In this document: in pieces, positions 984 through 62,853 of the stretch | Position numbering within the stretch: the stretch's first letter is position 1 | Layout of the letters: each line of letters starts with the position of its first letter | DNA from: Seison nebaliae | Taxonomy: Eukaryota | Assembly (NCBI GenBank): GCA_023231475.1 | Contig: JALJEE010003284.1 | Coordinates: 1 to 64,000 of the forward strand | Length of the DNA stretch: 64,000 bases | Direction of reading: 5' to 3' | Program-made: the position numbers and the translations under genes | Notes under the pieces: generated by a model | What the model saw: only the letters and a program-made list of their open reading frames with translations | What the model was told of the DNA's origin: nothing | The model's database searches: none

Positions 984-2614
984 TTATGAAGGATATTCTG
1001 TTTCGAATTCATTAATAATTAACTCTAAATCATCTTCAGTTAGTTTATTGTCGAAAAGAGTGATATTTGAGGATTCAAACAATTTCTTTAAAGTTTCATC
1101 GAACTCTTCAATAATTGTGTTTGTTGTTTCACTAAAGTCAATACTTTCATTATCGGACGATCTCCTTCGTTTTGTTATAGAAATACCTGAGTCAGAAGAC
1201 TCTACAGAACTGATGTTCCAATTTAAATGATTTTTCGTCGATAAATCTTCCTTTAAAATTATTGGAACGGTTTTCATCAAAAAAAAATCCATAAGTATTT
1301 CAGATGTTATTCTTCTTTCAAAATCAACAATCTTCACATCTGATATGGAAGTATTCATGCAAATTTTGTTTGTTATTAAAGATTGTAATGGATCATTGAG
1401 AATTAATTGATTTAATTCAGAGAACATGATTTCTAAATAAGAAAAGATGGAATATTCTTCTTCGTTCCATATTCTCCGACTTGTTAACATGATCGATATT
1501 GGTGAATGGATATCAATCTTATTGAAAGTAACAAAGAACGGATAATATTCATCATTCATTCTTCTATGTATAATCGTACCATAAAATTTGTTCAATTTTT
1601 CTTCTTCTGCCAAACCTGATGAGAAAATAATTTATTAGTCATTATGAAGAAAGAGTAAGATGAATTTGAACATGAGCTATGAATTTTTTGAATTTTCTTT
1701 AAACTCGTTAAATCCACTTCATGATATAAGTTCTTTTGAGTTAATTCGAATTGATTTGAATACTGATTTAAAGAAGAAGAATAAAATTCCATATTATAAT
1801 TAATTGACTTTTCCACGTTCGATTTCAACACATTAAGTGAATTGTGAACTGTGAGAGAAAATGAGATATTAAAGAAAAAAATGAAAATTAACTGTGTTCA
1901 TCGACGGATGAAACGTTATATGAATTTATTAAATTATCTAAACATTCCCATTCGGTGAGAAGAAAATTATTTGTCCATTTAATTCGAATTAGAAATGGCT
2001 AAAAGAAGAAAATTGAGAAATAAGTTTTCTTCTATAAATAAAAATAAACATGAATCTTTTTATTTTCTCTCTTTGTCTTAATCCAATGCCACCATCCAAT
2101 GAATGAATAACTTTCATTCGACAATTTCCGTTTAAACATCTCATCAAGAGCATCTGGAGGATAAGTATGAATGAATGTTGAATTATTTCCATTCTCATCC
2201 TTATCAGTAATATTCTCAAAGTTTCCCAAAAGATCAATCTTTTTATTATTTGAAGAAGAAATTTAAAAATAAAGAATAATAAAAATGAACTTTGTTATAT
2301 CCAGTTCTATAAATATTTTCATCTGGTCCTTCAACAGTCAAAAATGTTCCATCTTTATCAAATAACATATAAAATTTATCTACATCGCATTTGGGAAATG
2401 ATTGTGCAATTAAGTTATTAAGAGTCTCTGATGGTTTCTTTCTAATGAAATCTTTCACTAAATGTTTCGCGTTGATTATTTTGAATGTGGCGGATAATGT
2501 CTCATTCTTACTCAAGACGGCACAATCCGAATTGAGTATATGTCCAAGACCGTTTCGCAATTGATCGAATTCTTTATTTTGATTTTGAGTCCAAGCTCGT
2601 TTAGCACCACTCAT
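984..2614 (-). CDS. Divergent bHLH-PAS transcription factor (5 exons)
   Basis: bHLH-like NKEFDQLRNGL..LSKNETLSATFKII; PAS-A-like FYMLFDKDGTFLTVEG..GYNK|IDLLG..FIHTYP; PAS-B-like LYHEVDLTSLKKIQK; four GTT-AG introns (first 2290-2239) join the ORF-track fragments in frame. Confidence 0.6.
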
Positions 2615-2795
2615 AATTGATTGTAAATGAATTAATGCAAAAAAATGGTATATAGATCAACTTATGTAATTAATAAAATTAGGAAAAACAGCACAGCCGT
2701 ATTCGAAGGAAAGTTGAGAATCAAATTTAATTTTGTTCGTTTTTATAATGTGTTGAACATATATTTATTTCAGTTACTCCCAATAACTTGTACTA

Positions 2796-5582
2796 TTAAC
2801 TAATCAGAAGATGACTGACGTCATTCGAACGAATAAATCCTCCGCCTACGCCATACAATATGATGTTCTCCAATGCGTTGGAGAGGTCAAAATAATATTG
2901 AAAATAGAGCGAATTTGTCAAAGTTTCTTCATACGATTTCTTTTCCAGCATAAAACTGTAGACGTCCAATAAAGTAGTGAAATATTCTTCATTTAGTCTC
3001 GTCATTGTTAGTATAATATCTCCATTATATTCAGGGTCGATGTGAAAGTTATAAGGAGATTTCATCAAATATTGTCTAATGCTTTCACAATATTCATCGA
3101 TCAAATCAAATATTCGATAAAAGAATGAGTCACATTTGAATAAAATGCATTTCTTATAATCGTCAATTAAATCACCATGAATGGTGAGTAAATGAGGAAG
3201 ATTCAAATATTTCAATGTGGCGATTTGTTTATGGAAAATGATTTGAAGTTGTCTTTCCATTGTTGGAATGATAGATATGAAGAGAAAATCTTTCAAATAC
3301 ATTTGAGTCGATTGTAAAATTTTCAAAATATTTTTCTCAAAATATTTCATATATAACGTGAGATTTGACAATTTTAATTTGATAATTTGCATTCTTATAA
3401 AGAACTTATTGATTTCTTGATATTCTTTCATAAATTGATTTGATAAGAGAATATTGAATGGTCGATTGAATGTGGTTTGAAATAGGAATGAATCCAATTT
3501 CGCCTCTTCATTTCTTTCATACCATTCGAGATTGATGTTAAGATATTTTAAATTAACTGAATAATTTCGATTTAAAGTGAGAAATCGTTGGAAATAATAA
3601 GTCATTAAACAATGTTCAATTTCATTATTTTTCAATTCTTTTAACATATAATGGTGAATGAACCATTGGAAAAAATTGTTGATGAATGGAAGATTTAATC
3701 GAATATTGATGGCGAATAATAATTTAAAGAAGAATTGAATTGTTAAAGAATTGTTCGTTAATAATTGGAAGAATTGATCATCAATTAATTTTAATTCATT
3801 CCGAATTCTTCCAAATAGTTGATGTTCTCGTCCGTTTGATGTTTTCGTAAATCGCAAATTTATCGAATTGTTTCCACTTAATGTTTCCTCGTCGACAACG
3901 AATTGATAAAAGACTGACGTTTTTATTCCATAAATTAACAATCTCTCAATCTCTTCATATTGTTGTTGAAAGAATGAATTAATAGTAAAAACATGATTAT
4001 ATTTCTGATTAATTTTATTTTTGAAAATTTCATTCCAAAAATTATTAATTTCACTAAAACATTCCCCATTCAATAGGAGATTAATTGATGATAAATCGAT
4101 TAATTTCTCCAATTTCTTCAATTGTAAATTAATCGATTCATCTTCATCATTTCCTTTTATCAGACATTTTAATTGGAAATATCGATGGAGATTTGAAATA
4201 TTCTTCTTACTAATAAATGACATGAAGAAATTGTCGATATGTTCCATTATTAATCGATATAATTGTCGTAAATTATCTCGATGTCTCTCTTCCATTTTCG
4301 TCCAATTAACTGATCGTTTCAATCGATTCAATTCAAATAATGAAATCAATTCTAAAATTAAATATTTCATCTGATAATCGTTTGACTCGTTGAAATTAGA
4401 GAAGAAATATCGATGGAATTTCTCACATGATATTGTTAATTGATGATAGAATGGATGAAGTATATGAAGTAATTTCATTTCATTCGAATAATATAATTCT
4501 TCTTCGATCGACAATCGACTTAACGACAACGAATCCCAATCACTTTTTCGAATTATTTGTAAATTGGAGAGATTCAATTGAATTTCTAAACGTTTCTCGA
4601 TTTCGTTCACTTTATTCAAGAATGGTTGATAGAAATCGATGGAAATTCTCTCGAAAATTGAATTGACAATTTGAATGAATAATTTCATTAAACGATTATG
4701 TCGATGATTATTGTCATTTCTCATGAGAATTTTTTCTAATTGTTCTTTAATGAAATGATGAAATGAATAATTAATATTTATTAATAATGAGGAAGCTTTT
4801 AAAAAATCTTCAGGAATTCCTTCATTTGATAATATATTGTGAATTAATTGGAATTTATTGAAAATATCTTCATTCTCCTTATGGAACAATTGATAATTTT
4901 CTAAATTGAATGAATTCTTCACTTCTTTCTTTACTTCGATTTCTTCTTCTTCAATTTCTTTCTTTATTATCTTTTCATCATTTTTCTTCTCATTCACTTC
5001 CTCTTCAACATTCGACCATTCACTTAAAGTGGAAGATGACGAGAATGAATAATTCCTTTCGATCTTTTCAATATCGATAGGCAAATGATTTTTGGATAAT
5101 TTTAATTTCTCATTTTTCATCTTCTCTCTCAATGATGAGAGATCCATATCGATTATTGATTCATATGTTAAATTATTCATCAACATTAAAAATTTCAATA
5201 TTTTAAAATTGGTCGAATTTAATTTTTCAACTATTCGATAATTGGACAAAGATTTCAGAAGGAAATCTTCTTTCTTCAAAAATTTACTCAATATGAATTG
5301 CTTCTCTTTCAATTCTTCTTTCGATTGATAAATATTCTTCGTATAATCTTCATCGATGATCGATTTGACACAACGAAATATTTCTTTCCCATAATTCTCA
5401 TCAGGACCATGTATCAACCATCGTTCTATAATTCCATTATATTCTCCAATCAACTTTCTCGTTTTTTCAGGAATGTCTTCCTCAATCGAATTCTTCTCCG
5501 TCAAATCATCGACATTCAATTGATCGACATTAAAACTGTTTTTGAAATCGTCTTGTAATAATTGATTAATATAAATTTTCAT
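2796..5582 (-). CDS. Gamma-tubulin complex component (Spc97/Spc98 GCP family), intronless; subunit identity uncertain
   Basis: 928 aa ORF with GRIP2-like segments LSSINLLLNGECF and FNRPFNILLSNQFMKEYQEINKFFIRMQIIK. Confidence 0.65.
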   Translation of the reverse strand: MKIYINQLLQDDFKNSFNVDQLNVDDLTEKNSIEEDIPEKTRKLIGEYNGIIERWLIHGPDENYGKEIFRCVKSIIDEDYTKNIYQSKEELKEKQFILSKFLKKEDFLLKSLSNYRIVEKLNSTNFKILKFLMLMNNLTYESIIDMDLSSLREKMKNEKLKLSKNHLPIDIEKIERNYSFSSSSTLSEWSNVEEEVNEKKNDEKIIKKEIEEEEIEVKKEVKNSFNLENYQLFHKENEDIFNKFQLIHNILSNEGIPEDFLKASSLLININYSFHHFIKEQLEKILMRNDNNHRHNRLMKLFIQIVNSIFERISIDFYQPFLNKVNEIEKRLEIQLNLSNLQIIRKSDWDSLSLSRLSIEEELYYSNEMKLLHILHPFYHQLTISCEKFHRYFFSNFNESNDYQMKYLILELISLFELNRLKRSVNWTKMEERHRDNLRQLYRLIMEHIDNFFMSFISKKNISNLHRYFQLKCLIKGNDEDESINLQLKKLEKLIDLSSINLLLNGECFSEINNFWNEIFKNKINQKYNHVFTINSFFQQQYEEIERLLIYGIKTSVFYQFVVDEETLSGNNSINLRFTKTSNGREHQLFGRIRNELKLIDDQFFQLLTNNSLTIQFFFKLLFAINIRLNLPFINNFFQWFIHHYMLKELKNNEIEHCLMTYYFQRFLTLNRNYSVNLKYLNINLEWYERNEEAKLDSFLFQTTFNRPFNILLSNQFMKEYQEINKFFIRMQIIKLKLSNLTLYMKYFEKNILKILQSTQMYLKDFLFISIIPTMERQLQIIFHKQIATLKYLNLPHLLTIHGDLIDDYKKCILFKCDSFFYRIFDLIDEYCESIRQYLMKSPYNFHIDPEYNGDIILTMTRLNEEYFTTLLDVYSFMLEKKSYEETLTNSLYFQYYFDLSNALENIILYGVGGGFIRSNDVSHLLIS

Positions 5583-5676
5583 TATCTTCTTTATAAATTA
5601 TGATTTAATAAGCCTAATTTCAAGAAAAGACGTTCAAATCATTATTCTCTTTTCCATTATGAACGTATTTTCACTT

Positions 5677-5689
5677 GTTACTTAGTAAC
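5677..5689. promoter_or_regulatory. RFX X-box-like motif in the divergent GCP/NEK1 promoter
   Basis: GTTACTTAGTAAC, a near-palindrome resembling GTNRCY-N-RGYAAC, ~95 bp from the GCP ATG and ~240 bp from the NEK1 ATG. Confidence 0.5.
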
Positions 5690-5931
5690 TATCTGTAAAA
5701 GTTTATTATTCAGAAAAATATTTAAAGAAAAATATATATAATTTTGACAGTACTAAAAGTTCAATTATAGACAGATTAGAAGAATAAAATAAAACTTCTT
5801 CTCCTACTAATTGGAAATTATTCTCTCTATGTTTATTTTAGAAATAAATTAAGTTCATTAGAACACAAACCATTCCTACAATATTATGCAACAGTTGAGA
5901 TAATAAAATATTATAATAAAAGTTTAAATTA

Positions 5932-8900
5932 ATGAATAATTATATAAAGATCAGGAAGATTGGGGAAGGATCTTTCGGTAAAGTATGGTTAATAAAGGAA
6001 AGAACCAATCAATTTCAACCATCATCCCCAAAAGTGGAAACTCAAGTTATGAAAGAAATCGATTTATCTAGAGTTCCTTCAAATATTTCCTTCCTTCAAC
6101 ATATTTCATCAAATTTAATTCTCGTTCATTGAATTCGAATAGTTGCGAGTAGCGGATAAAGGGAAAGCGTTAGCGGAAGTAAAAGTTCTAGCTAACATTA
6201 ATCATAGTTGCATTGTAAAATATTATGATTCGTTTCAAGGTTCAAGAATAAATTATTTTCCCTCATTCCGTCCATAACCACCAATTGCAGATTTAGCCAT
6301 ATTATGTATAATAATGGAATATTGTGATGGAGGAGATCTACAACAGAAAATTCTTCAACAAAAGAATCGAGTAAATGCAACTTATTTTGACGAAACATTA
6401 ATTACCAATTTGTTCTCACAAATAGCTGCTGCAGTGAAACATATGCACGACAGGAAGATTTTACATCGTGATCTAAAATGTGAAGTTCACAAAAAATTTC
6501 TTGCTTTATTAAATAAAAATATTATTCAGAATATATTTCTCTCAACAGGTGATCGAATAAAATTGGGTGATTTTGGAGTTGCAAAAATATTAACAGGGTT
6601 AGAAATATAATCATAATAATTTTTTATTATCTGTCTTTTGTAGAACTGTAGATTATGCATCAACATTGATCGGTACTCCGTATTATATGTCGCCAGAAAT
6701 TTGGTCGAATCAAAAATACAACAACAAAACGTTAAAATTTTTAAACGTTTGCTTATAATTTATTATTCTGAATTTCAGTGACATTTGGTCGTTAGGTTGC
6801 ATTCTTTATCAGATGATGTCGTTGAAGAATCCTGTTAATTCTTGTTTCATTAAATTAATTTTAATTCAATTTTTAACAGTTCGAATCGAAATCACAAAGA
6901 GAATTAATTTTGAAAGTTACCGGTAGAGGAACAGTAAGCGAACTGCCAAATCATTTTTCTTATGACTTACGCTTGCTTGCCAAACAGATGTTAAAAAAGT
7001 CTCCAAAAGATCGTCCATCGATTAATTTGATTTTTGCCAAATCGTTTATTCATACTGCTGCTTCAAAATTTATTCCAAATGAAGTTTCCGAGATAAAATT
7101 ATTAAAATTTATTCAGTTTGTTGAAGGAAATGGAAGAAGCGTTATCTCACACAGTTCTTCATGGATATAACTTAAATCGAGCTCCAGTCAAACCACAAAC
7201 TCCAAAGAAAAAAGCGATCGAATTGTCCAAACCGAAATTTCTTACAAAATCGAACAAGAAGAAGTTTTATTTGAAATTATGAAAGAATCTATTCAGAGAT
7301 TCATTCTTAAAATTATCCTATTAATTTAGTGAAGTGAGAACTACTTCGAAAAGTGAAGCATATTCGAAATTCATGAAAAAGTTAGGAGATACACATCACA
7401 TCATTCGATAATTAATATTTATGGAACGTCTTTAGACAAAATGAAGAACGGAAGAAAATGTTATCGAACGAAGGAAAAGTGATATTTTATTTCGAAATCT
7501 TATCAATAATTCTTTTGTTCATAGAAGAAAGATGTAGCATTACAAGACGTTTATTTCAAATTTTTCTGAAATATTTTTATGAAATTTTTAGAGAAATCGA
7601 ATAAACAAAGAACGAGAGAAAGGATGGAAACCGATTGTAGCAGATTATAGACCAGCAAATTACGGTCAAAACCACCGAGAAATTGTAAATAATGACAGAA
7701 TGAATGTTATTTCGAGGGAAAGATATAGTATGTATCATGATCTATTAGGAGATTTGAGAGCGAATAGAAATCAATTAAGTAACGTTTCACAACAAGCACC
7801 ATTCATGCATAATTATCAAAGACAAAAGTTGGAATTTTTAAGAAAAATAGAAAACAAATTTTTATCAGATCTGACAATCAAGTTCAAGATGAATATATAC
7901 AACGACGAAATGAAGCGTTGAGAAATAAAATTAATTACGAGAAGGTTTATAGTCATGATGACTATCAACGAGTATCTTATCGATCTCCCATCGCCCCTCA
8001 CATTGAAACGAAATCATCAGAGTCCGAATATTTAAGGAAATTAGAGGAATGTAGAATACAAAATCATCGAGTTACAATATTGGGTATTTTTCTAATAATA
8101 ATTTCATATTGTAATTCAGGAAAGAAAAGAACTTTTGGCGAAACATAAACCGTCCAATTTCCGATATCCTTATCAAAAGCCGAAATGTTCAGAACAGAAC
8201 GATAACATTGATGATGTATTGAAGAAATTAAATTTGAATGATAAACCCTTATCAGAAAAGCAAGAGGACAAAGAAGAGAGTAAAGATAAACGACAAATTA
8301 ACAAATCGAATATTCCAAAAGATGATAATAAATGGAATAAAAATAAGACTAAAGAGAAGGAATGGGATATGAATGGTCATAATACTGAATTCCGTCAATT
8401 GATTGATAATCAAACTGGAATAATTACAGATACGATGAATATGAAGACGGTAAGTAGTGCATCAAGTAAGAAAACTGATGAATCGGAGGACGACAGTTTA
8501 GGTCTCTTACAGAAACTCAAAAAGATTAAAAATGAGAATTTGGAGAAGATAAATAAAAAGTCGAATAATGGAATTCGATGTAAGACGGCGAATTTATCTA
8601 AAACAAAAACAATTAAAAAAGAGGTAAAAGAAAATGTTTTAGATGGTTTAGCAACGGGTAAATTTGATATGAAACATCCGACGGTTTCCATTTATCATTA
8701 ACTATTTGCCAATTTCTAATAATTTTACTTCCAGTTGTTAAGAACAGCATCAGTGCCAAATATAATAGTTGAGTTGGAAGAAAATGAAAATGAGAAGACG
8801 AATGGGATTAAAGTTGAAGAATTATCCGAGAATCTTACGGAAAAACCGATTATTCGAATTATGTCGAAAAAACGGAAAAATTCGGCACACCTAATAAAAA

Positions 8901-10723: not shown

Positions 10724-11890
10724 TTAACAAAAAGACATAAAATGAATGATAATAAGAAATAATGAAATAAATGAGGATTTGATGGTTGATGGGGAAGAAT
10801 TCGAGATAAATTTCATTGCTTCTGATGATGCAGAGTCTTCAAATGTATAATGAATTCTGTTATTCTGAATAAAAATACGACGATTACGACCCACAGAAAG
10901 ATTTTTCCTTTTTTCTTTTTTCAGAAACGCCACAACAACTGGAAGGTTGTTAGAAGAATTTCTTAATTTCATCTGTTTCTTTGACTCTCTTTTTTTCGTC
11001 GTTAATTCAATTGGGAATGACGTCGTTGAAGTTATCGACTTCATAATTTTGAGCGGGGTGTTGATAATTGTGGATGTTACCGAACTATTATTAGCTAGAG
11101 AGGAATTATTCATATTCTCCATTTTCGACAAATGGGAATGGACAAGTATTTTTAATTTCATATTATTCTTCTCACAAAGACCATTCTCTTCATTATTTAT
11201 TCCATTCTTTGTTCCATCTGACGTAGCTAATAAATGAAAATAAAAATAATAATTCAAATAAAGAATGAAAATAACTGATAAAATAATAGATATTATTCGG
11301 AATTAAATTGAATGTACCGGGAAGCATCTTTATGGGAGAAACGAGAATTGTACGTTTCCTTACAGATCTTTCTGGTGAACATGTCAATAATAAACGAGCA
11401 AATTTCTTTTTCACCTTTTTCCCCAACGTTATCTTCTCAATTAATTCCTTCTCGAAATCTTTCAATTTCGTTAATTTACAATTCTCATAATCAGATTTTG
11501 AAACGGAATAAATTTTGTAGTAAATTTCCGATGATCGATTCATCATATCATCACAAATAATATCCAAACTTTGACCATTGAACACATGATAACTGTTACC
11601 GAATGTTATCCAATCGACGTAATTTTTTTTATTATTTCCATTAAGTTCTGATTCGTTCATTTTAAAAGAATATCGTTGTCGTTTCGTTCTAACGATATCG
11701 TCTTGTTGTAAATTGGAATTAAATCTGAAATTTGAATTTCGTTCGATACAAATATTAAAAGAATTCTATCTAACAATTCTTTGTTGTGAATATTGAAATA
11801 GATTTGTTGAGTAATATCGATCGCCAATAAATGATTGATTAGATCATGAAGGTGGAAAACTAGAATGTATTGGAATAATTTCATGTTCAT
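10724..11890 (-). CDS. Ephrin ligand, probably GPI-anchored (3 exons)
   Basis: Signal-like N-terminus; IYFNIHNKEL|F, LDIICD, YKIYSVSKSDYENC, LLLTC, YYFIT|TSDG..GLC..NMKLKI; hydrophobic C-terminus SSFISLFLIIIHFMSFC with no cytoplasmic tail; two GTT introns. Confidence 0.85.
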
Positions 11891-12189: not shown

Positions 12190-15100
12190 GACTGTCGGCA
12201 AGATGTTTATCAATATGACTTGAAGAAAATATGGAGTTAAAACATTCGTCTCATATGACAACGTAAATAAATGGAATCATCAGATGTGGTGAGTGAACAG
12301 CTGTAAAATTTTTATTTCTCACTTTGTTTGGATACGTTTGAAAGAATTCTATGACAAATTGAATACTGAAAATGGAAAGATATGATACACTATTCCACTT
12401 GACGACTACGAAACTATTAAACTTGGAACAATTCTGTTTTCATTACAAATGATATTTACTAGAATTTATTAGAATTTCTCAATTATAAATGTATGGAAGA
12501 AAGAAAATGAATGAATAAGTAAATGAAAAATGCTGCGAAGTGGAAATTGTGACAAAGAGACTACTTTATTCCATTTTCGTTATAACCGAATAACAAGTGT
12601 AGTTCAGGTACTTTATCTCAATACGTCTCTAAATTTCAATTCGAAAACTTCTCACAAATATTTTATGAAAAGCATTCACTCGTTAAAAAAAGTGGTTTAA
12701 TAAACTTTCTTTTTCCTCTCAATCATTCCACTAAAAAATGTTTCATAATTCCTACTTGCAACAGGAAAAAGTAATAAGGATAAATTGAAGTCGGAAACTT
12801 TAACGAAATTCTTTCCTGTTCTTCGAACACTACTACTACTATAAGTGTTAGTGCGCTGAATTAATATTGGATTAATAATATAATAGTTTAAGAAAATTGA
12901 TGTTAAACTTTCGTAAAATAACTTTTCTATTTATTATGAACGAAGTTATCATTTGGTTGAATACTCGATATTGGAAAGAATTAATTTCAATCAATTTTCT
13001 TTATAATTCTTCATTTCAAATCATAATTATGTCAAGTTGTTTTAGATGAATTTCTACAACAAATTAAATAACTGAAATAACAACAAGAAATAATTGTGAT
13101 ATTTCAAAAAAATTAGTTTTAAGTACTCTTCGAGTAATTGGAATAACTGGGACTTATTCCAATATACATTTTCAGATGACGATTATTTGATTTGAGACGG
13201 TTCAGATTACATAGTTTATAACTCAAATTACGTTCATCGAAATGATTAATAAAAATTTTATCACATCAATTAAATTTCTTCTCAGACTTCTGAACATCTT
13301 GGACGAAACATAAAAATATTTGTTCGTATAAAGATCTATTTTTTAGGGATTCCTTAATGGATCGTACATATTGATAATTTACTTCTTTTTCATACGATTC
13401 CATTTCACTTAGATGATTCTCAACAAACGAAGAAAATAGTCGAGAATATATTGAAAATGATACTTTCGGTTGAAAAAAAAAAGAAATCTTTTAGTAAATA
13501 AGTTTCGTGAGGTAAATATCTTTTAGGATTTGTTTATCGGCTTCTCAATATCTTTCATTCTAATTAGCCTACTGTGAATGTTTTAAGCGTTGATCGAGTG
13601 ACAATAATCTCCCTTTTCCTTTATTATAAAAATTCTCGCCCTCAAATTTATTATTAAGGGAATTATATCATTATATTCTCTTAGATCTCATCTCAGAGAG
13701 TGGAATTCACAGATTGATTTTCGGTAAGTCCCTCTCAATTACATGAATGAAACGAAAATTTTCTTTTCAATCGATAAAAAATGAAAATTTTAAAAAATAG
13801 AAAAAATTATGTTTATCATATAATTGATCGCTCCATTTGCCATATGGAAACAATTGTCGAATGGGCCGTCTGTCTTATCTACGTACAACGACTGTTATTC
13901 GTCCATCAAAAAAGAATTACAATATATTTACGACGTAAATTGGAAAGCATCGTCTATGGACAAGGTAATCAACGAACCGAATGACAACTGATTAACCGAC
14001 AAAGAACTATGCGAATATTTATCTTTTGTATCGAGATTTCCAATGAGCGTATCTACTGTCAATCCTCAACTAGTTTAGTATTGTCATTAAAAAAGAAAAG
14101 GAGAGTAAAATAAAAAATCATTTCTTTCATCACCGATAAATAATCGATATATCTGGTTGAATGTTTGAGATTGCCCAAAATAAAAATGACCATTGTACAT
14201 TCTAATTGACGATAAAAGACGGAAAATGATAATTTGAACCAGAAATTAAGAAGAGAACAATAAAAGTATCGATATCCCAGTCGATTCTCATACAATGTTA
14301 TGATAATGACCGTTATGTTATTATTGTAGATAGGAAAGATCGGCAATTGGTGAATTGATGTGATTAATTGGAAATTGTTTCCTTATTTATTTTTCGCTCG
14401 TTCGTCTCTTATTGTTTCGATGGGTAAAAAATTCTCATAATTCCCAAAATAAAATATTCATTTTCATTCGACGATTATTAATCGATGTGATCACGTGAAA
14501 TGGTTTCTATCACATGATATCTTTATTTCAATTAAGTATCTGAATTATAATCGTTTTTTTTTGAGGAATTTTCATCTTATCACTCCCATTTCTCTCATTC
14601 TTAAAAGACACTTCTAATGATTGTTGAAGTGCGAAAATTTCTTTCTTTTTTGATCCAATTCTAAATGAACAACTCTAAAGTTAAATGCTACTTCTTTTTC
14701 TTCTTTGTAATTGAGATGGATAGGTTCATCATTGGCAGTCGTATATCATTTGATGATAGTCTATCATTGATAGAAATGATAGAGTAATGAAATAGAACAA
14801 TGACGAATTACATAATATACTTGTTTTAATGCATGGTATTTCATGGTCATCATTCTTAATCATCTCTCAGTTGATGTTTTGGCATGTTGTTCATTAGAAT
14901 TTTTATTAAAATTAGATGTATGAAGTCAATGATAAATATTATCAGGTAGAAATACTAAAATGCAATGGAACTGAATGACGGAAATATCGTGTGTCTTATG
15001 TGATAAATGGCGATAGCAATACCATTTAATGGAAGAAATTCAATTATATTTACATATTATAAATAGATGGAAAAGAATGATAATGAAAGGAAATTTCTTC

Positions 15101-18100: not shown

Positions 18101-18810
18101 TGTTTATATGCTAGAAAAATAACACTCTTGTATTTTCCTATTGTTCTCGATGAAAAACTATGGTCGGAAATGGGATTAAAAAAGAATGTATTATGCTTGA
18201 AGCCTAATCCTTCAGACCGTCAACAGTTTCATTCAGCCCAAACATCCGAATGTTCCATTTCGTTTTGAAATGTCTTACAACTTGTTAATTGTTTAAAGTT
18301 AATCAGCCAAACTCGGAAATCCAACTAAACTGCTATAAAATATAGATAAGAAAATTCGTTAAAAGTTTAGAATTTAGAAATTAAATAATTGAAATGATGA
18401 TCCTATTTTTAGAATGATGACTTTAGTTTCAATTGTGAATTTCAACAATTCTCTTTTAAATTTAACATTCAACTTCGATTTGTTCATTCAAATAAAAAAA
18501 AGATTGAGATATAAATATTATACTTAATTAAAGTAATTTTGGTATTTTAGAAGTAGTAAATTTCAAAAATTAGTAAATTTAACTTTATCAAATGAATTGT
18601 GAAAATAAATGGAATTATTGAAAAAAATGCGATTGGTCGACCTTTCCAGCTTAATATCATATCAAAAAAATAAGAGAGAAAGATATTCATAAAAATTTTT
18701 CAAATAAAAATATCATTTTTAAATGTGTGGCGTAATAATTTGAAGATTTGGTAAAAAGACAAATTTCTTTATTAGTTTGTAAATCATCTGAAAATTTCCA
18801 GTTTCACAGA

Positions 18811-25268: not shown

Positions 25269-26070
25269 ATGTCGATAGCATCTGAATTTCCGTTGCAAAT
25301 CCATAATATTGGAAAAAGGCATATTTGCTTTATTGCTCAAACTAGAGGAAATCAGAGAAATGAACCAAATTTGGCGACGTTTATTGAATTGAAGACACCA
25401 AAATTGTGTAGGAAATTTCGAATAATTCAAGAATTTCCCTTTTATAATGATCAAGTTTATTCAGTTATTTAAAATGTGAAAAATTTTTTATTTATCTTTT
25501 AAAATTGATGGAATAGAAAAAGATTGATAAAGGAATAAGGTTTTTTATTTCATTCCTTTGTAAAAAATTCTAATATATTAATATATTAGAAATTATGAAA
25601 ATAAATGGAAATATTATGAAAATGGAAATAATATGAAAAAAACGAAAATTCCAGAATTTAAATCGCCAAGACCTCGAATATTTAATTCGTTGTTTAATCG
25701 ATTATGTTGTGCTACCAAAACAACAGATATTAGTGAAATTACTATTCAGTCTATTAGAAGGAAATCAAAAGCATTCCCAATGTTCTTTAAAAAGATGTAT
25801 GAATGGGAAAAGAAGAAATCTTCGAATATTTCATCTTTTGATAATACGTCAACATTGGCTGAATCGACTGTGGACGATGTTGATTTAAAACAGTTGGAAC
25901 AACGTGTCAGTCATAAAGATTCAAAGAAAGTCGATGGTACCATATTAAAAAATTCATATAAAATCAACAATATAACCATCAGTAGATCTGTGAATCATAT
26001 TCCACCAGAATTGGCTAAACCTTCCATTATATTGGAAAGTAATTTCAATTTGATTGATGAATCAAAATAA
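25269..26070 (+). CDS. Orphan protein, 3 exons (middle exon only 23 nt)
   Basis: Two GTT-AG introns join ORF-track ORFs 25191 and 25633 exactly in frame through micro-exon 25517-25539. Confidence 0.6.
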
Positions 26071-39088: not shown

Positions 39089-39134
<46 letters not shown>

Positions 39135-48101: not shown

Positions 48102-48877
48102 GGGGAAGGACAAAAGAACCACGGTGCAAAAGAGCCATAGACAAAAGAGACACGCATACTTCTAAAAATAAGATATTTACTCTATTACAGATAATTCATA
48201 CAGTTTTTCTTTATTTCTTCGAAATATGATAAAAAGTCCATCGTATCAAATGCGTCAATTAAGTTTTTCAAATGAGCAGTAAGTGTTTTCTTCATTTTTG
48301 GATTTTTATTCTTTTCTCCTTCCAAAATCCTTATCTCAATGTATGTTTCAATTTCTTGGATGTTGTCCAAGAATCGGAATATATCTACCCGTTAACCCGA
48401 GGATATTCAATTGAAATAATTATTGAAACTTTCACTAATATTATTAGTAATAGAAGGAGTGCTGTTTTTCCGCATTGCTTCGAAATTGTTCCAAACATGA
48501 ATGGGAAAATGGTTATTTATCAAATTATTCCTAATATCCCGATAACCAATGAATTGTTGATGGAAATAATTAAAAATCGGATCCCAAATTAACGGAGCCT
48601 TGTGATAAAATTTTTTAAACTCGAGTTCAACTTTATCTGTAAATTCCTCTGTAAATTTTGGAAAACCAAAATCCAGACATGATAATCCTGTACAGTCCTA
48701 TACCGCGTTTTACTTATTTTACTTCACTTTGAGAGGAATCCATTCCAATTCATGACCCGACTCGAATCAAAGCATGAACCTGACTTTTTATGTTTCTGCT
48801 GTTCGAAAAAAATCAATGCCTGTGTGGCTCTTTTATCTCGTGGTTCTTTTGTCTCGTAGCTCTTTTGTCCTAGACTT
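48102..48877 (-). mobile_element. Internally deleted Mutator-like DNA transposon (MULE) with repeat-built TIRs and 9-bp TSD
   Basis: TTCTCATTG at 48093-48101 and 48878-48886; inverted arrays of ~GACAAAAGARCCAC at both ends; internal frame IFNYFHQQF..FPIHVWN..TNNISESFNNYFN*..IFRFLDNIQEIE with in-frame stops. Confidence 0.85.
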
Positions 48878-49609
48878 TTCTCATTGTCAGGATCTTATTT
48901 CAAAGTATTATATCGAGTTATGTTTATCTTGATTACGTTAATGTAATTTATAAACTTAGGGAAGAAATATTCTGCATTTTCTCAATAATTTCCCCAAAAC
49001 TTCATTTGGAAATACATATTATTATAGTATTAGATGAAAATTGGATCGTTCAAGTCTTGTATTTAAAATAAAGAGAAATTATTTATAAATTCTAATAAAA
49101 TTTCCGCCTACGAACATAAGCCTAAGTTAGTTGTTACTACAGCCAAAATAGACATTTTATTTTACCATGTGTTGATAATTAAATGTGTTAGCACCATAAG
49201 AATCATAGAAAATTACTAGTTTAATTAATAACTCGTAAGTCGACTCAACAAAAACCATTCAATTTGACATTGTAATTCCAAATGTGAAGAAATATTTGGA
49301 AAAATGTTGGACTTATCCATTGTTAATGGCTATTTTATGTCAGATATTCTACCATTAATTCGTCATAGAATAAATTTTTAAAATTTGAAACAAAAGTATC
49401 AGCTTTCTAATTCACAATAAAATTGTCACTAAATGTATGATGATCCTATTAGATCGTTTTAAGGTATTCGTGTATTCACAAAATATTACTCTTCAATACC
49501 TCTTGGAATCGACTTCATTCAAAAGTTGATGATTGAAAGAAATTTTTTCCAAATTCGCGATTTAAGTTTTCGGCCTTTAATTTTTCCTGTGTAAATTGCT
49601 GCACAAATA

Positions 49610-51143
49610 ATGAGCAAATTAGATCGGTTGTATCGAGGAATTGTTATTTCCAAATTCTTTAAAAGTGGTTGGGGATCACCGAATTTGTTGCATAAGTTTG
49701 TCGATTTCCTTCGTACAACTTTTTGGATAATATAGCTGATGAAGAATTGTTACAAATCATCATAACTACTATAGGAGTCGTACGAATTTCCTTAATCAAT
49801 TCGCTTATCCTTTACCTGAATTTCGAGTTGAAAAGGTTTCTATTTCGAAAATGTTTATAATAGACAAACACTTTTCTTTCAGATACGAGAAACGAACAAT
49901 TATCAGACGTACAACGTTAGATTTCGAACGTCGTTTTGGAATTGGTGGATTGATGAGATTGAGAATGATGTTGTTGATATTGCCGAGTTTGTTTTGAATA
50001 AATTCTACTAGCGAATTCGAATAAGGATTTCAGTGTAGAGATGGTCGTTCCGAAAACTGTGAATAAGAATGAAGATATGAATATCATTATCCATCTAGCT
50101 GGTACTGGTGATCATGTTATTATTTATTTTTCTTATTTTTTGTGTATTTCTCCTTTTTTTTTCGTTTAGTATAGTTGGAGACGAAGATTAATGTATGCAT
50201 TACCTTTAGTCTCCAAAGGTAATTATGTTTCGATGATTTTAGAGAATCCATTTTATGGTCGAAGGAAACCCAAAAATCAATTGTTATCATTTATCTCTTT
50301 TATCATTTTCATTAACATTTCCATTCATTTAGACGATCAGCTTTAAATAAAATTTCTGATCTCTTCTTAATGGGAGGAGCGTTAGCAACTGAAGTATATC
50401 ATTTAATCCAATGGACGAAACGATATGGATTATTCGAAGGAATGAATTTGAAATTTTGTGTGACAGGAGCATCGATGGGAGGTCATATGGCTGCTGTCAG
50501 TTCAACATTTCTTCCAGAACCAGTCATCTGTATTCCTTTTCTCACTTGGTCTAGTGCGTCGTTAGTATTCACACATGGTGTAATGAGTACATCATTACCA
50601 TGGAAAGTTTTGGAAAAAGAATTAATGGAAAATTTTGATGAATATGATAAGAAAGTTTTCCAATATTTTTCCGATATTCCTGGCGCTGTCAATGATAATA
50701 ACATATCAGAGACACGTCGAATATTGATGAAATTATTAGATGAAACAACATTTGTCGGTCATTATCCTCAACCGTTCGATGACAAGAATAATTGTGTTGT
50801 CACAGCAGAATATGATGCTTATGTACCTCGTTTTCATTTTATTCCTCCGTTGGTTCCCAAACCGAAAAAAATTCTGAGAAATAAAACGAAAGATCTTAAA
50901 GGAATGATATCAAATGCTTTTGATAACACGATCGTTAAAAAGGAAATGAATAATTCAAATGATTATATCGTATGGCCGAATGCATCTCATTTGCAAATGG
51001 TGAATCAAGGTCATGTATCGAGTATCATGAATTATGCTGATATCTATCGGTTCACATTTTATTCGTTTTATTATTTATTGATATATATTTATTACAGAAC
51101 AATTATTATGAATCGAATGAATTATTTATCAGTTTCAAATTGA
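49610..51143 (+). CDS. ABHD18: Alpha/beta hydrolase ABHD18 (C4orf29/DUF2048), 7 exons
   Basis: MSKLDRLYR..FFKSGWG, IHLAGTGDH, LENPFYGRRKPKNQ, SDLFLMGGAL, TGASMGGHMA nucleophile motif, DAYVPR, GHVS; six GTT introns. Confidence 0.92.
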
Positions 51144-51497: not shown

Positions 51498-54378
51498 TCA
51501 AATTTTTTTCTTATTATAATGATAGTTAGTGATGGATCTCGATGAAGTTAACAGTTTTCGAGAAGAAAAATATTTAGGTTTACGTAACGAGTTTCTCAAA
51601 CTCTTCACTGTAGTCATTCGACACATTCCTGATGCTTCACTTTCATTAATTAATCGAGTAACAGGATTCATTCCAATCAAATCCAATAACGAGATTAACA
51701 TTCCACGACCAACCTAAATAGAGAAATAATTTGGAAATGAAAATTTCATAAATCAGAATAAAAACATTATAATAGTTTTCTGGTTGGAGTATTGTTCTTG
51801 CAGGACAACTCTTCAAATTCTCATTATTTCCTTCCATAGCTAATCGTTGAAGAGATAAGACTAATGACTTATCCGTTCGATTTCCGTAACCACTCACTTT
51901 CAACTTCTCTAATCGTGACGCTTCTTTACAACTGGCATAGGAACATTCCAAAGTATAAGAATGAACTATTCCTAAATGTGTATACATTGCTACACGACCA
52001 GCACCAGCTTTTGATAAGTCTCTTTTGTCCTTCATGTACATATTCCGTTGAGTGAAATTACAATTAGTGAAATCGACATATTTCGAATTGAATGCAACAA
52101 TTCTTGGGAATAATTGTACATCAATCTAATAATAATGTGGAAGAAAATGAAAAAAAGAATGAAGCAATAAAAGTAATGAAAAAATGAAACATTTCGTTCA
52201 TCGTCGAAATGATTTCCATAAAAGAAACAACTCTTTTTACCTGCATGTGCATGCAGATCGATGTACATTATGACACCACTATGTTGCCAATCGATGAGAT
52301 GTAAAAGATTTTCATACCAATTAAAATCTTCCGTTTTTATCATATGATTACTCATAATATGTTTACTAGAAATTGCATCAGAATCAGAATCATCATTAAC
52401 TGATTGTGAATTGTGATCACTATCTGATAAAGTATTATTATTATTATTATTATTATTGTTGTTATTATTCTTATTCTTATTGTTTAAATGAAGAAACAAA
52501 TGACTTTTCCTTCTACGTCGACGTACGAAATTATCTTTTGAGAATGATGTATTCGATTTAAATAAAGACATTTGATGATTAGTTGATGATTTCGGTTTCA
52601 TTGATGATTTCGGTCTTTCAATCTCACAGAAAATATCATTTGGACTTTTCTTATTAAAGTTTCTTTCTACTTCCAATAAAACATTCATTAAATTCAATGA
52701 ACCATTTTTCGATTGTTGTTCGAATGACATATTCTCCAAATATTCGAAAATTGTTTCATGTGATTTGAAAGGAGGGAAAGTTATCTTCTCTCCCAAACCT
52801 TTCGATTTCAAATTTTTCAAAAATGTCAATTGCTCTCGATGAGAATACCGTAGAAATCTTGCCAACCATGCTAAAGTTCTTTCTCGATTCGGTTGTGCTA
52901 ATCGATAAAAGATATGATAATAAGTTAATAAAAGTTTCGCTGCGTAAATGGATGGATGTGACAATGGTGATGGATTCTCATAGTAACGATTCAAATTATC
53001 TCCAAAAGCATTTGATCGATAATTGCCCATTGCAACACCATCGGGATTTAATAAAGGAATTAATTTGAAAATGAAACAAGATCGTAATAATTTCGAATGA
53101 ATATTTTCTTCATCCAACAGAAATTTCAATAATCCATTAAATACAAAAGATGATGGCGTTTCACCTGGATGAACTCGACTGGTTATGAATACGATTCTTT
53201 TCTGTAATGCAAATGATGGTCGAAATAATTCGAGAACGGCATTCTGTCCTTTATATTTCCCACATTCTTTCTTCATCTTATTCCGTTTAGTTGTCATATA
53301 TAACTCTTTGAATAACAATTGAAATGATGACGGTTTTTCACCGTTCGTCGTCCCATTTTCATTCACTAATAAACTTTTGAGTAAAGTTCTCGGATTATCA
53401 ACTTCTAAATTCTAAATCGAATAGAATGAATAATAAAGAAAATTAAAAAAAAAAAACGAACAAAATTCCCAAATGGCATTTCCGAATGAATATATTGATG
53501 ACATCGTTTCCTTTTGTGGACATTAGGAAATAAATATTGACCGTCAATCGTCGGTTCTCGTTCATCCAATGGATGAAGTTGCATTCCATCAGTTGAAGAA
53601 ATTGTCAACAAATCAACATTTCGTTGACATCTTGAATGACAAAGAAGTTCACGATAAAAATAAATTTTACTTTTATTCTGTTTTATCGATTCATTATCAT
53701 AGAAATGACCATATTTCTTATCTAATTCATTCAACATATTCTGAGTCTCTTCATAACCGAACGGATAACAATAAGCAAACGTTACGGTAACTGTTTCCTT
53801 CTCCAATTGATCATTCATAATGTGAATGAATGACAAATAGAAACTTCCATCTACAGTACTACAAACACAACGACTCAAATTGATACGATGCAATTTTTGA
53901 CCATTATTTATACGATACACTGGAGTATGACCAGATGTGAATAATTTTTCTTGACGATTCATATTCATAAAATTGAATCGAATAACTTTCAATTTCTTTG
54001 ATGTACATTTGAAATGGAACCAACTTCTGTTCTCCAATAAAAAATGAATAAAGAGAATTTTATTCAATTAAATTAACCGATTTCCTGTATAATAATTTGT
54101 CGATTCACAATCTCCATTAATCCAAATATTCACATCATAATTGACAGATTCTATTAAATAATTATTAATTGGATGAACATATAAAAAGAGCTTGTAAGAC
54201 CTAAAGATAATTGATATAATTTCTGTAATTTCTTATTATCTTTATTGAATGGTCGTCTCATATGATCGATTAAGATCGTTTGGAAACGTTTATCCATATC
54301 AATTTCATATTTTTGCAAATTTCCTGCATCTGCTGCCGCTTCCACCTGAACTTCAGAAGTAACCGCAGTGTCAATCAT
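51498..54378 (-). CDS. AGBL5: Cytosolic carboxypeptidase 5 (tubulin deglutamylase, M14 family), 6 exons
   Basis: NR|SWFHF, FAYCYPF, RELLCHS..VDLLTISS, SRVHPGETPSS, LNPDGV..NLNRYY, IDLHAH, MYMKDKRD..GAGRVA..SYTLECSY. Confidence 0.9.
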
Positions 54379-57310: not shown

Positions 57311-58780
57311 TTATTCGATATCTTTATCATTGTTAATACTCCATTGGAAATAATCGGGACGTGTTGCCGCATGATATTCATCGATCAATTCCCGTACAAC
57401 TTCAGCGGAATGATGGAATTCTTCAATCGAATCAGCAAACATCGGTTGTTTCCGATATTGTTCTAAAAATGCTTCTCTCTTAATAAATTTATCGAAATGT
57501 TTCAATGTCGTTGAGAATAGATGTGAGATCGATGTATGATTAGCTAACATTAGACCGCTAATTCGATGTTCCGTTTTCATATATGGTGAACGACGAGCTA
57601 CGGCCACCTGAATGGAAGCCGGACCCCAATCGATAAATTTGATGGGTTCCCGTTCCTTAATTCGAAGTAGACTATCATTTATTTGCATAATATCAACTTC
57701 GCCTTGCAGAATTTTCAAAATAGAAATATATGCGTGTTGTATGGTTTTAGATGGATCTTTCGCCAACATATTTGAATTGACATTAAAATTATTATTATAT
57801 TGAGAATAATGAGATGCGGCGAATGAAGAAACCATCACATTTTTAGGTTTCAATAATCTTCTCATAATATCAATTGTGGATGTTTTTCTGATTTCTGATT
57901 CGACCGTTTCTGATGTTAATGGCGTATAAGAACTAATAAGGAAATGTAATCGTGGTGTTGGTATTAATGGTGAGATCATTGAAACTAAATCATTATTCAT
58001 AAAATCTGGATAACGTAAAGGTGCAGTAGATGCCGCCATAATAGTAGATACAAATTGATTTATTTCCGATAACGATGGTTTATCAATATGTAATCGTTCT
58101 ACTGCTATTCGATCTAACGCCGTATTATCTAATACCACAACAGAATCGGCATGTAATGTTAATCGTTTCAATGTCAATATGGAATTATATGGTTGAACGA
58201 CAACTTCGGAAACTTCGTCTTGTTGAGGAAATACAGAATAAGTTTGAATTAATTTTCCTGAATATCGATCATTCAAATGTTCGAGAATATGAGAGCCTAA
58301 ACCAGATCCCGTACCACCAGCAATTGAATGACATAAAACGATTCCTTCCAACGAATCTGTATTATCAGCTTCTCGATCGATAATATCGAAAATCTCTTCG
58401 AATAATTCTTTACCTTGTTCATAACCGATTGCCCAATTATTTCCTGCCCCACCACCTTCTTTTGATACATAAATATTTTCACGATTATACAAATTCTTAT
58501 AATCAGATGACATCATAGTATTGATGACTCTTGGTTCCAGATCGAGTAATACAGCTCGTGGAATGAATTTCTGATCATCAGCTTGATAGAAAAAAACATC
58601 TTTCCGATCCACCATCGAAAAATCAGTTACATCAGCAGAAGTTAAACGACTCCTCTCCACATTCGGATCGATCAAACCATCACTACTTATCGCATGTTCC
58701 ACACACAACTTCCTCCAGAATTCCATTCCGATCTGATTTCCACATTGTCCCAATTGCAACGTAATTATTCCACGTGGCAT
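57311..58780 (-). CDS. TUBG1: Gamma-tubulin, intronless
   Basis: [68 protein letters not shown]. Confidence 0.97.
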
Positions 58781-59045
58781 TTCTCAATTCCGAAAAGTTA
58801 AATTGTCTCTGATTCCCGAAAATATGATAAGGGATAATCGTAAAATATTGAAAGAAAGAATGTTTTATTTGATAAAAAAAAACAAATGTTTTCCTTTTTT
58901 TTTTCAATTTAAAAATGTCAAAAAAATATATTTTATTTTTCTTTCAATTTTACATACATTTTCCAAATGTGAAGCTTATGAAGATATTTGGAGGAATTTT
59001 CATTTTATTTAACTTAAAACGCAAAACCGACTTACAAAACGACAT

Positions 59046-61009
59046 TTAAATATAAAGATCAACATCAGTTTTCGAAATTCTTTCGATTCCCAATTTCTGG
59101 AAATAATTATCAATTTTTTCTTGATCTATTTCAAAAAAGGAGAAATATATTTCAAATTAAAAAAGAAAAATTACAAATATAATTTAAACTTGCTAAATTG
59201 ATAATTTTCTTCCAATAACTTCCGTAATCTCCCAAATCGTCCTCACCTGTCATTTCATCATTAGGACCTTTAGAATCGAAAAGTGAAATTTGAGAATATG
59301 ATTCTAATAATTGTCTCATATTATCTTCACTCAATGCATTCATTTCTAATAATTGTTTAATTTTTCCTTTTTTCGGTCGTGGTCTACCTTTCATTATTGG
59401 CGGAATATTCTCAGCTCGTGGAATACGTTTTGTTGAATTATCCTCACAATTTCTCTTACGATAACGATTATTTTGAATAATGTTATTATTCCTAAAAACC
59501 GATTGTGCTGGCATCAAATCTTTCGAATTACAATTCCGAATAATTTTTATTGGAGTTTCAGCGATAGTCGTTACACGAGGAATCGTCATCATTTTATATT
59601 TGACATTTGGTGGTTTGGAATGATAATTATTTTCAATTCGATTATTCATTGTTGATCGATATGGAATTTCTTTTGAAATTTTTCTCTTTAAATTTCCACG
59701 TTCCAATTTATCTTGACCATTCAAATTGTGAATTATTTTATAATTATAATTTTTCTTAGAAATATCATCGTCAATCTCTTGACCATCAACAGATGATTCA
59801 TTTAATGTTAATGTTGAAATTGGTTGAGATGATGAATTTGAATCTATCGATTTCTGTGTCGAATCAATAAACGATGAAATTGTGGTGGAAGGTTGAAGTG
59901 AATGATCTGAATTAATTTCTTTCAATTTGAATCTTTTCGATCTTCTCATCTTCTCGGAACTTCCCAATTTTCCTTCATTTCTCAAGCACATATCAATCAA
60001 TGAGCAAATATCGACTTTCTTCTCTATTTCGAATTCATACAACTTCCTCAATAACATATCTAAAAATCATCATAATAAATTTTAAACGGTTTTTAATTAC
60101 TAACAAAATTCTCTACTTTGTTCCATTTTTGGTGTATTTATATGATGAGTGAATGTTTCCTTCAATCTGGAAAAATGAAACGAAAAATTATTTTCATCAA
60201 AAAAATTAACTGAATTAGATAATCGGAATAAGAATGTTTATCGCTCGGGAATTTGTTAATTATTCGATGAATTACTTCATAATCATATTTTATCTCATCA
60301 GTCAAATAAATTTCTTTAATAAAACGTTGAATGAATTCGTGAGTCTCAGTCAATGTCCATTTACCCACGGAAGAAGTTTGACCTAAAATAATTTATAAAA
60401 ATTTAAAAAAAAAATATTAAAATTGAAATATAATTTAGATGAACTTTTATAATGTGCTTCTTCAAAATTCTTTCCTGATATTCTTTCTAAATCCGAAAGG
60501 AATTGTTTATAGCAAGTCGAATGATATTTTGCTTTCTTATCCACCAAACCAGAAACATGATAAAAACGATAAATGTAAAGTGGATGAATTTTAGATAATT
60601 CTCGAATTTTTCGACATGTTCCTTGACGTTTCGCCAGAACGATACGCTCTGACGTTTCCATTTGACAGAAAATACATTTCACATAATCCACCACATACAA
60701 ATCGTGAAGAAATTTACCGTTCTGATGGTTATGATTAGGTAGGTTTATTTTGACTTGAAGAAAATTTCCGTTTTTTTTTGCTAACATTGACATGAGACAT
60801 TCGGAATTGTCGATCTCCTTAAACTTATGAGAACAGATGTAGGAGATTTCTTCATATTTCAATTCGGTATGTTTCACCGAATCATCAAAATTCAGATCTT
60901 TATATCCATTCCGTCTCAATTTCATATCCTCTTCCGATTCATAATCCTCAATCGCTTTCGACAACTCTTGGAACGAACTATATTTCGCATTATGCTTCAA
61001 TTTCACCAT
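59046..61009 (-). CDS. Protein with FAR1/ZSWIM3-like (MULE-derived) N-terminal DNA-binding domain and disordered basic C-terminus (5 exons)
   Basis: YSSFQELSKAIEDYE..LKYEEISYICSH..C..LPNHNH; CIFC..KYHSTCY; AT-hook-like KGRPRP; four GTT introns restore frame. Confidence 0.6.
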
Positions 61010-61433
61010 TTGTTCTCCGATAAATTTTTGATAACGATAAACCTTTTTCGCCTACTTAATTTTTTGAGAGAAAGTCTTAAGCTTAAAAATAGCACAATTC
61101 CACTTTGGAAAAAATTGAGCTGAAAATTTTTGAAGAAAAAATTTGGAAAAAAATTTATTGATTTACAAATATATTTATTATGAACCATATTTTTATTAAG
61201 TGAGGTTATTGGAAGACTAGGTATTTGAGAGAATAACTCCAAAAATTATTATTCTTTATCGGACTTTTATTTTTAGTTATTTAAATTTTTTGAAGCTTTT
61301 TTATAAGTTTTCTTCCATTATCAGTTCCATTAGAATCTAATGGAATCTAATGAATAGATACTTCAGCAACAATCCTTTTATCTAATTAGAATTTTAGCAA
61401 TTAGAATCGAATGATTAGAAAATGAGGAACGAT

Positions 61434-62853
61434 TTAATTAATCAAATTCAAATTATTTATTTTTAAGATGATTTGTTGTTCGGGAAGATTGTTATTCAAT
61501 TCTATAATTCTTATCATACGATTTATAATCTTCTTGTATTTGTCGGAGAAGTGAATTGGTAAATTTTGAAGCATATCATTGTTCATCGACCGACTCAAAA
61601 CATTCAATTGACAAAAAGAAGTTTTTCTTAGTTTCTCCTCATTCGAAGACTTTTCCGATGGAGATTTCGTGATTTTCTCACAGATATTATAAAGAATCCG
61701 ATTAAGTAATTTGAATCGAGCGATCTTATGGATAATTTTATTCGAATGATTGATCGTTAACGGTTTATTGCTTCGCATGAAACGGAAAAATTCTTGAATA
61801 TTTGATGAACGATATTGATTTCCTAATTGTGATAGAAAAGTTTCTTTTAATACTTCGAAGATCATTTGATCAAATCTGGAAATATGATTGAAAATAAATT
61901 TAAAAAAATATTATAATATAAAAAAACTTTAAATATTTTTCAGCTAATGGTCTCATTTCTTCGATTTTTTTATTAGGTAAATAGTTTCCATTAGTTTTCT
62001 CATTTTGAATGAATGCAAATAAATAGAAATCGATATGGATTTTATGAGAGAAGAGCAACAATGATAAATAGCTATACTCTTTCAATAAGATTAATTGATA
62101 AGAATTTTTTAAACTGTTAATCCAATAATTTATTTTGTCGAGATCTGAGGAATGAGGTAAAAACTGCAATTTATCTTTTTGGCAATTGCTCAACAATGAT
62201 TGACATAATGAATTCCTGATATTGTTAATACATTGATAATGGAGATATTTGTTCGATATCGAATTCTTTCGTAGACTTTCATATTGAAAGAATTTTTCCG
62301 AAATATTCAGTCGTTTCATCGAAAGGAAAAGTTCTTTGGCATCCGAGAAAACTAATCCCTTACAATGATTAGTTAACCAAACTTCGTCCTTCAGTTTATT
62401 CATTAATGTAACAAAAGGATCTTCCAATAAAAGTATATTTAATGTATGAACATTCACTTCAAATTTACGACGTATCTTCTTTCTCTCGGCTAACGGAAAT
62501 AAATTGTATTGAAATGACTTTCCGGTATCTAATCGATTTTGAGCGATATTCTTCGATAGTATCGTACTTGGAATATTATTCTTAATGTTATTTCGAATAA
62601 CAACATACGCTGATTTCGTTCGATATTCCAAATTGTTTATCAATTTTAATTTATTCAAAATATTTCTAAAAATGGGATTTTGGAATTCTCCAATATATTG
62701 CACCAAATAAATATCATGAGTTCGATATTTGTCCTTTTCATAATTATCATCCTCATTCGACATTAAATGACTCCAAACCACCCATATGAGGAAGCATGCT
62801 CCAACATTCAGAAGAAGACGCTTTCTCCCAAACATCATTTCAAAATCGTTCAT
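61434..62853 (-). CDS. Galactose-3-O-sulfotransferase-like type II Golgi protein, divergent (2 exons)
   Basis: N-terminal TM; LLLEDPFVTLM, YQLILLKEYSYLSLLLF and YLK|FDQMIFEVLKETF resemble Gal3ST family motifs; one GTT intron. Confidence 0.55.

Follow-up and report, generated by a model that had tools for sequence, protein, structure and literature searches.

Introns beginning with GTT predominate in a 64-kb window of the Seison nebaliae genome: a non-standard animal donor and its possible basis

Background

Few features of animal 5' splice sites (donors) vary as little as the purine at intron position +3 and the G at either exon position -1 or intron position +5; in some nematodes and bdelloids a substantial minority of donors starts with GTT. 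Roca and Krainer reportedly described, in 2009, rare human donors recognised by U1 in a shifted register, supported by pairing at positions +4 to +9 that includes a G at +6.

Donors starting with GTT have already been published for the amoebozoan Entamoeba, whose short AT-rich GT-AG introns nearly all carry U at +3 as part of a rigid donor (88-90% GUUUGU), accompanied by a U1 5' end that reads ACAAAC (10.1101/2022.06.08.495308). Such a change of U1 is a minority outcome among lineages with odd donors, since the standard ACUUAC has stayed in place in 227 yeast genomes despite switches at +4 (PMC10581693) and is kept in Thecamonas, Giardia and S. cerevisiae, which have atypical donors (10.1101/2022.06.08.495308). 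Loss of METTL16 weakens donors with A at +4 in fungi, worms and human cells (PMC10581693, PMC11347140), and METTL16-null splicing prefers AG|GU and U at +4 (PMC11347140); U at +3 is not mentioned in the accessible text on these systems, which comprise Saccharomycotina, C. elegans and human and are marked by loss of METTL16 or of U6 m6A43 (PMC10581693, PMC11347140). Among animals, splice-site recognition is rewired in the tunicate Fritillaria borealis, in which U6 m6A is lowered, U2AF is duplicated, donors are remodelled and 95% of the introns escape GT/AG (PMC13326754). No animal precedent for GTT-dominant donors, in Seison, in rotifers or elsewhere, was found in a literature search that left most subscription papers, figure logos and bioRxiv supplements outside, and such donors are not mentioned in the accessible parts of PMC10125929, PMC11347168 and PMC3033335.

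Results

Genes and introns of the window

The window, i.e. the whole 64-kb stretch of Seison nebaliae DNA analysed here, has a G+C content of 28.7%. An ORF piece at 6290-6478 was 100% identical to the NCBI protein SNEBB_010716 of this seisonid (Rotifera/Syndermata), and six more genes correspond to named NCBI Seison nebaliae proteins, located on a 78,603-base contig. Exact spliced mapping of these seven proteins onto the window yielded an annotated set of 37 introns; the later mapper demanded GT/GC..AG ends, and the first had no such demand. Thirteen further introns, in ABHD18, CCP5 and ephrin, were placed by conserved motifs and open frames, which brought the number to 50. The scope is thus this one window, with introns taken from annotation, homology and gene models. 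A pooled profile search with 11 pieces returned six proteins and nothing for ABHD18, CCP5, ephrin and the genes at 47213 and 59152.

The NEK1-like kinase gene SNEBB_010716 (5932-9639, plus strand) contains 16 introns, starting at 6073, 6240, 6485, 6598, 6731, 6834, 7084, 7264, 7381, 7479, 7549, 7828, 8071, 8684, 9264 and 9393, and all except the one at 7479 (GTG) start with GTT. The TMF1 gene SNEBB_010725 (41399-44423, plus strand) has 11 introns, with starts at 42127, 42256, 42366, 42585, 42720, 42905, 43378, 43605, 43737, 44058 and 44219, of which only 42585 (GTA) deviates. SNEBB_010714 (984-2614, minus strand) carries four GTT introns (2290-2239, 2049-1999, 1892-1849 and 1671-1616), the TMEM26-like gene SNEBB_010719 (23814-25067, minus strand) a GTT intron at 24557-24494 and a GTA intron at 24210-24161, and SNEBB_010733 (61434-62835, minus strand) a single GTT intron at 61927-61876. 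Two orphan ORF groups that the sequence-only reading had joined through GTT donors are annotated with GTT donors as well: SNEBB_010720 (25269-26070, plus strand) has two GTT introns (25455-25516 and 25540-25589) and SNEBB_010726 (44979-45828, plus strand) a single GTT donor at 45029. The latter protein also shows a weak match to the Mad3/BUB1 homology region (E=7e-4, below the Pfam cut-off).

The 13 motif-read introns comprise 12 GTT and one GTC. Six GTT introns (49696-49744, 49836-49882, 49987-50033, 50116-50169, 50283-50332 and 51050-51097) were read by eye in ABHD18 (49610-51143, plus strand), where their removal gives one open frame of 412 codons; its N-terminal motifs are presumably those of the human protein. 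In CCP5/AGBL5 (51498-54378, minus strand), alignments to PDB 8v3m/8v3q and the open frame place the GTC intron at 54200-54151 and GTT introns at 54077-54027, 53461-53412, 52190-52126 and 51765-51714, and the junctions sit at motifs common to human CCP5. Ephrin (10724-11884, minus strand) has GTT introns at 11774-11725 and 11275-11227 (the latter acceptor possibly at 11218), its two ORF pieces matching Pfam PF00812 and meeting at Pfam positions 108-112 in an open frame. An unnamed gene on the minus strand (59046-61009), with model donors at 60444, 60210 and 59189 (GTT) and 60116 (GTA, or GTT slightly downstream), was kept outside the 50, and no locus was found for the Ly6 gene of the sequence-only reading. 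The names 'FAR1-like' for this gene and 'bHLH-PAS' for SNEBB_010714 come from the sequence-only reading alone, and Pfam assigned no family to the pieces of either.

Intron density is very uneven, as long, apparently intronless frames lie beside genes with 11-16 introns. These frames encode gamma-tubulin (57311-58783, minus strand), proteins of 933 aa (2796-5597, minus strand) and 1626 aa (18739-23619, plus strand) without a Pfam match, and an RPEL+SAP myocardin-like protein (36762-40286, plus strand). The closest match in a search with the gamma-tubulin was ~64% identical, with no near relative, and a search of metagenomes with Rotaria gamma-tubulin gave, among the best 80 of 592 loci, only identities of at most 73%, in which no rotifer donors could be counted. 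An intronless ORF block at 26149-30580 (223, 460 and 551 aa) has no Pfam matches and a slightly higher G+C content, is possibly foreign or mobile, and includes one ORF with short tandem peptide repeats. ORF fragments at 48263-49749, for which Pfam gave no match, resemble what we take to be a decayed Mutator-type transposase.

The GTT excess and its independence from annotation and composition

The annotated introns, 41-77 nt long (median 50), start with GTT in 34 of 37 cases, the others being GTA (42585 and 24210) and GTG (7479), and the proportion over all introns is 46/50. The ~90% that had been claimed from the letters alone is thus reproduced, and so are its counts for individual genes: those for NEK1 (15/16), TMF1 (10/11) and the 984-2614 gene (4/4) by exact mapping of NCBI proteins, and those for ABHD18 (6/6), CCP5 (4/5) and ephrin (2/2) from motifs and open frames. 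Each of the 37 annotated gaps has a unique GT..AG placement, with no alternative slide to GT/GC..AG ends.

Composition alone favours GTT over GTA by almost 2:1, contrary to the premise of an earlier argument that AT-richness should favour the two about equally: in the window, GT is followed by T in 42% (plus strand) and 43% (minus strand) of cases and by A in 24% and 23%, and inside introns T follows in 16 of 28 cases (57%). The conclusion of that argument nevertheless holds, as 34/37 (95% CI 78-98%) exceeds this intronic background of 0.56 with p=2e-6. Unused in-frame GT within 30 nt were GTT in only 4 of 13 cases, and in-frame GTA or GTG within the same distance, present in 6 of the 34 GTT introns, were passed over by the annotation.

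For the introns of the NEK kinase domain, all frame-keeping, stop-free GT..AG alternatives within ~40 nt (2-11 variants per intron) were scored with a profile of seven NEK kinases from species other than Seison, and the annotated GTT junction scored best in 7/7. A self-trained gene finder in which positions +3 to +6 were never modelled recovered 34 of the 37 annotated donors and placed T at +3 in 52 of its 70 donors; when the finder was begun from a GTRAG prior, +3T rose from 17/40 to 53/65. The donor-blind proportion of 74% is likely an underestimate, because three of the five false donors called within annotated genes were non-GTT. Among the finder's calls, a CCP5 'intron' with a GTA donor (51985-51932) was ruled out, as homology continues across it, and introns at 6934 and 9339 are missing from the NCBI NEK1 model.

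Low-depth contigs with ~15-20% divergence, representing a second haplotype, cover NEK1, including 6551-6691. Among 40 of the 67 entries of this comparison, third codon positions account for 23 of 33 exon changes, and intron 6598-6643 shows at least seven substitutions and at least four indels, the first at +6 and none within GTTAG; the comparison bears on this one intron, which it supports short of proof. In the DNA reads this haplotype covers 5900-7900 and 13500-17700, and it could be used to gauge selection on +3T.

Two isoforms of SNEBB_010726 are annotated with the same GTT donor and acceptors 9 nt apart (45071 and 45080), and 4 of the 37 annotated acceptors are not YAG, which together suggest that the NCBI models are transcript-supported. 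Part 1 of 400 of a Seison transcript-to-genome table lists 32 distinct gaps of 42-92 nt, the same size class, given without donor sequences (PMC8351084 supplement 2). In the same table the aligner logged most intron-sized gaps as deletions of undetermined direction, which may reflect a poor fit to standard splice models (PMC8351084). Taken at the levels of DNA and protein, the GTT pattern in this window is very probably real.

Intron class and anatomy of the donor

The introns have GT...AG ends and their removal restores conserved proteins, as expected of U2-type introns, whereas only 3 of 50 donors have a purine at +3, against ~37% A+G in intron interiors, and 27 of 37 lack -1G and +5G alike, so that they depart from the GTRAG animal consensus with -1G or +5G. 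Judged from the letters, they would thus be introns of the major spliceosome whose donor is non-standard. A U12-type reading was rejected, an RTATCC donor occurring in 0/50. A CTRAY branch-point motif was found in 6 of 37 introns, 19-28 nt before the intron end, and the introns are T-rich with no distinct pyrimidine tract. The acceptors are YAG in 33/37, with three AAG and one GAG; they too are loose. Intron phases 0/1/2 number 18/6/13, phase 2 thus exceeding phase 1 in this small sample of 37 introns.

On the exon side, for which expectations were based on codon position in the 37 annotated introns, A was found 22 times at -3 (14.6 expected), 25 times at -2 (15.2 expected) and 21 times at -1 (14.9 expected, p=0.03), whereas T was avoided at -3 (2 against 10.4) and -2 (1 against 10.3, p=9e-5) and G at -1 showed no excess (6 against 5.9). 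This signal had been overlooked by the sequence-only reading. On the intron side, counted in all 50 introns, position +3 has T46 A2 G1 C1 against an interior composition of 50% T, 32% A, 13% C and 5.5% G. Position +4 (T23 A15 C10 G2) is at background, and so is +6 apart from a single G in 50. Of the recurrent motifs proposed earlier, GTTTY is explained by the 50% T of the interiors, while an excess of G at +5 holds modestly (9/50 against 5.5%, p=0.001, uncorrected). What is left is a minimal donor: an exon end rich in A and poor in T, the GT itself, +3T and a weak +5G.

In the normal register, the used donors can form on average 4.70 Watson-Crick pairs with a standard U1; shifting by one base gives 4.73, while unused GTT decoys reach 4.32 and unused GTR decoys 4.85. 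Because these GTR decoys pair better, a standard U1 in the normal register would not prefer the used sites over nearby GTA or GTG. The share of sites with neither -1G nor +5G is likewise the same in used donors and in unused GT (145/198). A departure of donor recognition from the animal norm, as claimed from the letters, is thus supported by the scarcity of +3 purines and by -1G and +4A at chance.

Comparison with described systems

Compared by donors alone, the window shares with Entamoeba the +3U and the short AT-rich GT-AG introns, but it belongs to an intron-rich animal, with 16 introns in one gene, and is loose beyond +3. A rigid donor of the Entamoeba type was rejected, as GTTTGT occurs in 2/50. 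With the METTL16-loss systems it shares the absent +4A preference, the exon-side signal facing U5 and a METTL16 scored as missing, but the AG|GU and +4U preferences are absent: +4A (15/50), +4T (23/50) and -1G (6/37) are all at background, -2A is enriched, and SNRNP27 is scored as present. The shifted-register human donors resemble those of Seison in the GUU start and -1A, but they are rare, whereas GTT is the norm in the window and comes without +6G. Fritillaria is likewise an animal with rewired recognition, but Seison keeps GT-AG and only the flanks have changed.

METTL16 and spliceosomal components

SPF45/RBM17 is needed for short human introns. In a BUSCO table covering 25 syndermatans, METTL16 is scored 'Missing' in Seison alone, 23 of the other 24 species being scored Complete or Duplicated and one Fragmented, so that bdelloids, monogononts and acanthocephalans are scored as retaining it (PMC12256650). 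U5-40K, SPF45/RBM17 and the minor-spliceosome factors ZMAT5 and ZCRB1 are also 'Missing' in Seison, and SNRNP27, PRP8, PRP6 and SF3B1 are 'Complete' (PMC12256650). METTL16 and SNRNP27 had both been named earlier among the factors to be checked for loss or substitutions; the score is suggestive of absence for the former and speaks for presence of the latter. Of the 954 BUSCO genes, Seison is scored as lacking as many as 356, including 76 that do not count as missing in Neoechinorhynchus (PMC12256650). By our own arithmetic the chance rate of a 'Missing' call is therefore sizeable, about 14%, and the METTL16 score may reflect divergence. The names METTL16, U1C, LUC7 and SNRNP27 had no matches in the supplements of PMC8351084. 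Rfam gave no matches, and hence no snRNA gene, in the 64-kb window, and a motif scan of the window and the 80 metagenome loci revealed no convincing U1 or U6 gene.

Discussion

That the machinery is unchanged and the pattern arises from T-rich introns, a GTT-rich composition or a predictor or reader biased towards GTT is highly improbable and is largely refuted. GTT is indeed the commonest GT trinucleotide in the window, and the introns are known from NCBI models, homology and gene finding; nevertheless, the excess persists against the intronic background, the donor-blind model and the foreign NEK homologues point to the same sites, and neither the false donors of the blind model nor the unused GT nearby share the bias. 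Moreover, A is the base that a standard U1 should prefer at +3, yet it is observed there in 4% of donors against 32% of interior positions. A standard U1 could instead bind one base out of register as the new default, with U10 facing -1A, C9 facing +1G and A7 facing +3U. Both shifted and bulged registers have been described (PMC9311317), and this arrangement would cover +3U, the excess of -1A and the lack of a -1G excess without any snRNA change; however, it predicts G at +6, purines at +4 and +5 and C at -2 (4/37), none of which is seen, and with practically no gain in pairing over the normal register its pure form fails the sequence test. We regard it as rather improbable.

Alternatively, U1 may be standard and of minor importance, with +3U set later at U6, U5 and Prp8 after loss of U6 m6A, either through a wobble between U and G44 of U6 or through an altered U6 box (G44A) that would also remove the METTL16 target. 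According to reviews, the site of cleavage is determined by U5 and U6 and not by U1, and a purine at +3 pairs only weakly with G44 (PMC11732430), the Fritillaria donors accompany lowered U6 m6A, and the scores for METTL16, U5-40K and SPF45 and the A-richness on the U5 side of the donor point in the same direction. Against this, the best partner of G44 is C, yet GTC was found once in 50; U at +4 and +6 is at background and +5G reaches only 18%, so that the donors seem to make as little use of the U6 helix as of the U1 helix, and PRP8 and SNRNP27 are both scored Complete. On balance this course of events appears doubtful, if less so than a shifted register.

The best explanation, to which we give a probability of roughly 0.4, would be a major spliceosome in which the 5' end of U1 reads ACUAAC or ACAAAC instead of ACUUAC and so puts an adenosine opposite +3. 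The donors avoid A, G and C alike at +3; the partner of this position is therefore likely an adenosine, and would be neither pseudouridine 6 of U1, which favours A or G, nor G44 of U6, which would accept C; a change at position 6 of U1, as in Entamoeba, would be its simplest source. The preference for +4A, absent under any of these mechanisms, would have gone, probably with METTL16 and hence with the m6A of the U6 ACAGAGA box. The uridines of U5 loop 1 would be the pairing partners of the A-rich exon ends, and what the donor lacks in information would come, through intron definition, from the short length and the U-rich, G-poor interiors of the introns, possibly with recruitment of the TIA-1/U1-C type. 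Apart from the rarity of U1 changes elsewhere, this changed U1 is opposed by the chance-level -1G and the free +4 and +6, which a single change would leave unexplained, by a helix of only about four pairs, and by the absence of the METTL16-null preferences from the Seison donors. The wider proposal, that Seison is the first animal with a genome-wide AA|GTT donor code for major introns, a co-evolved U1 5' end and a spliceosome freed of U6 m6A by METTL16 loss, is tentative and seems unlikely to hold in full.

An intron-rich animal that lacks both the +3 purine and the -1G or +5G rule offers a natural experiment on the question whether donor choice depends on U1 or on U5/U6. It also bears on whether loss of METTL16 precedes or follows a change of splice sites, as close relatives are scored as keeping METTL16. 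In the Seison lineage, standard splice models will mis-call genes.
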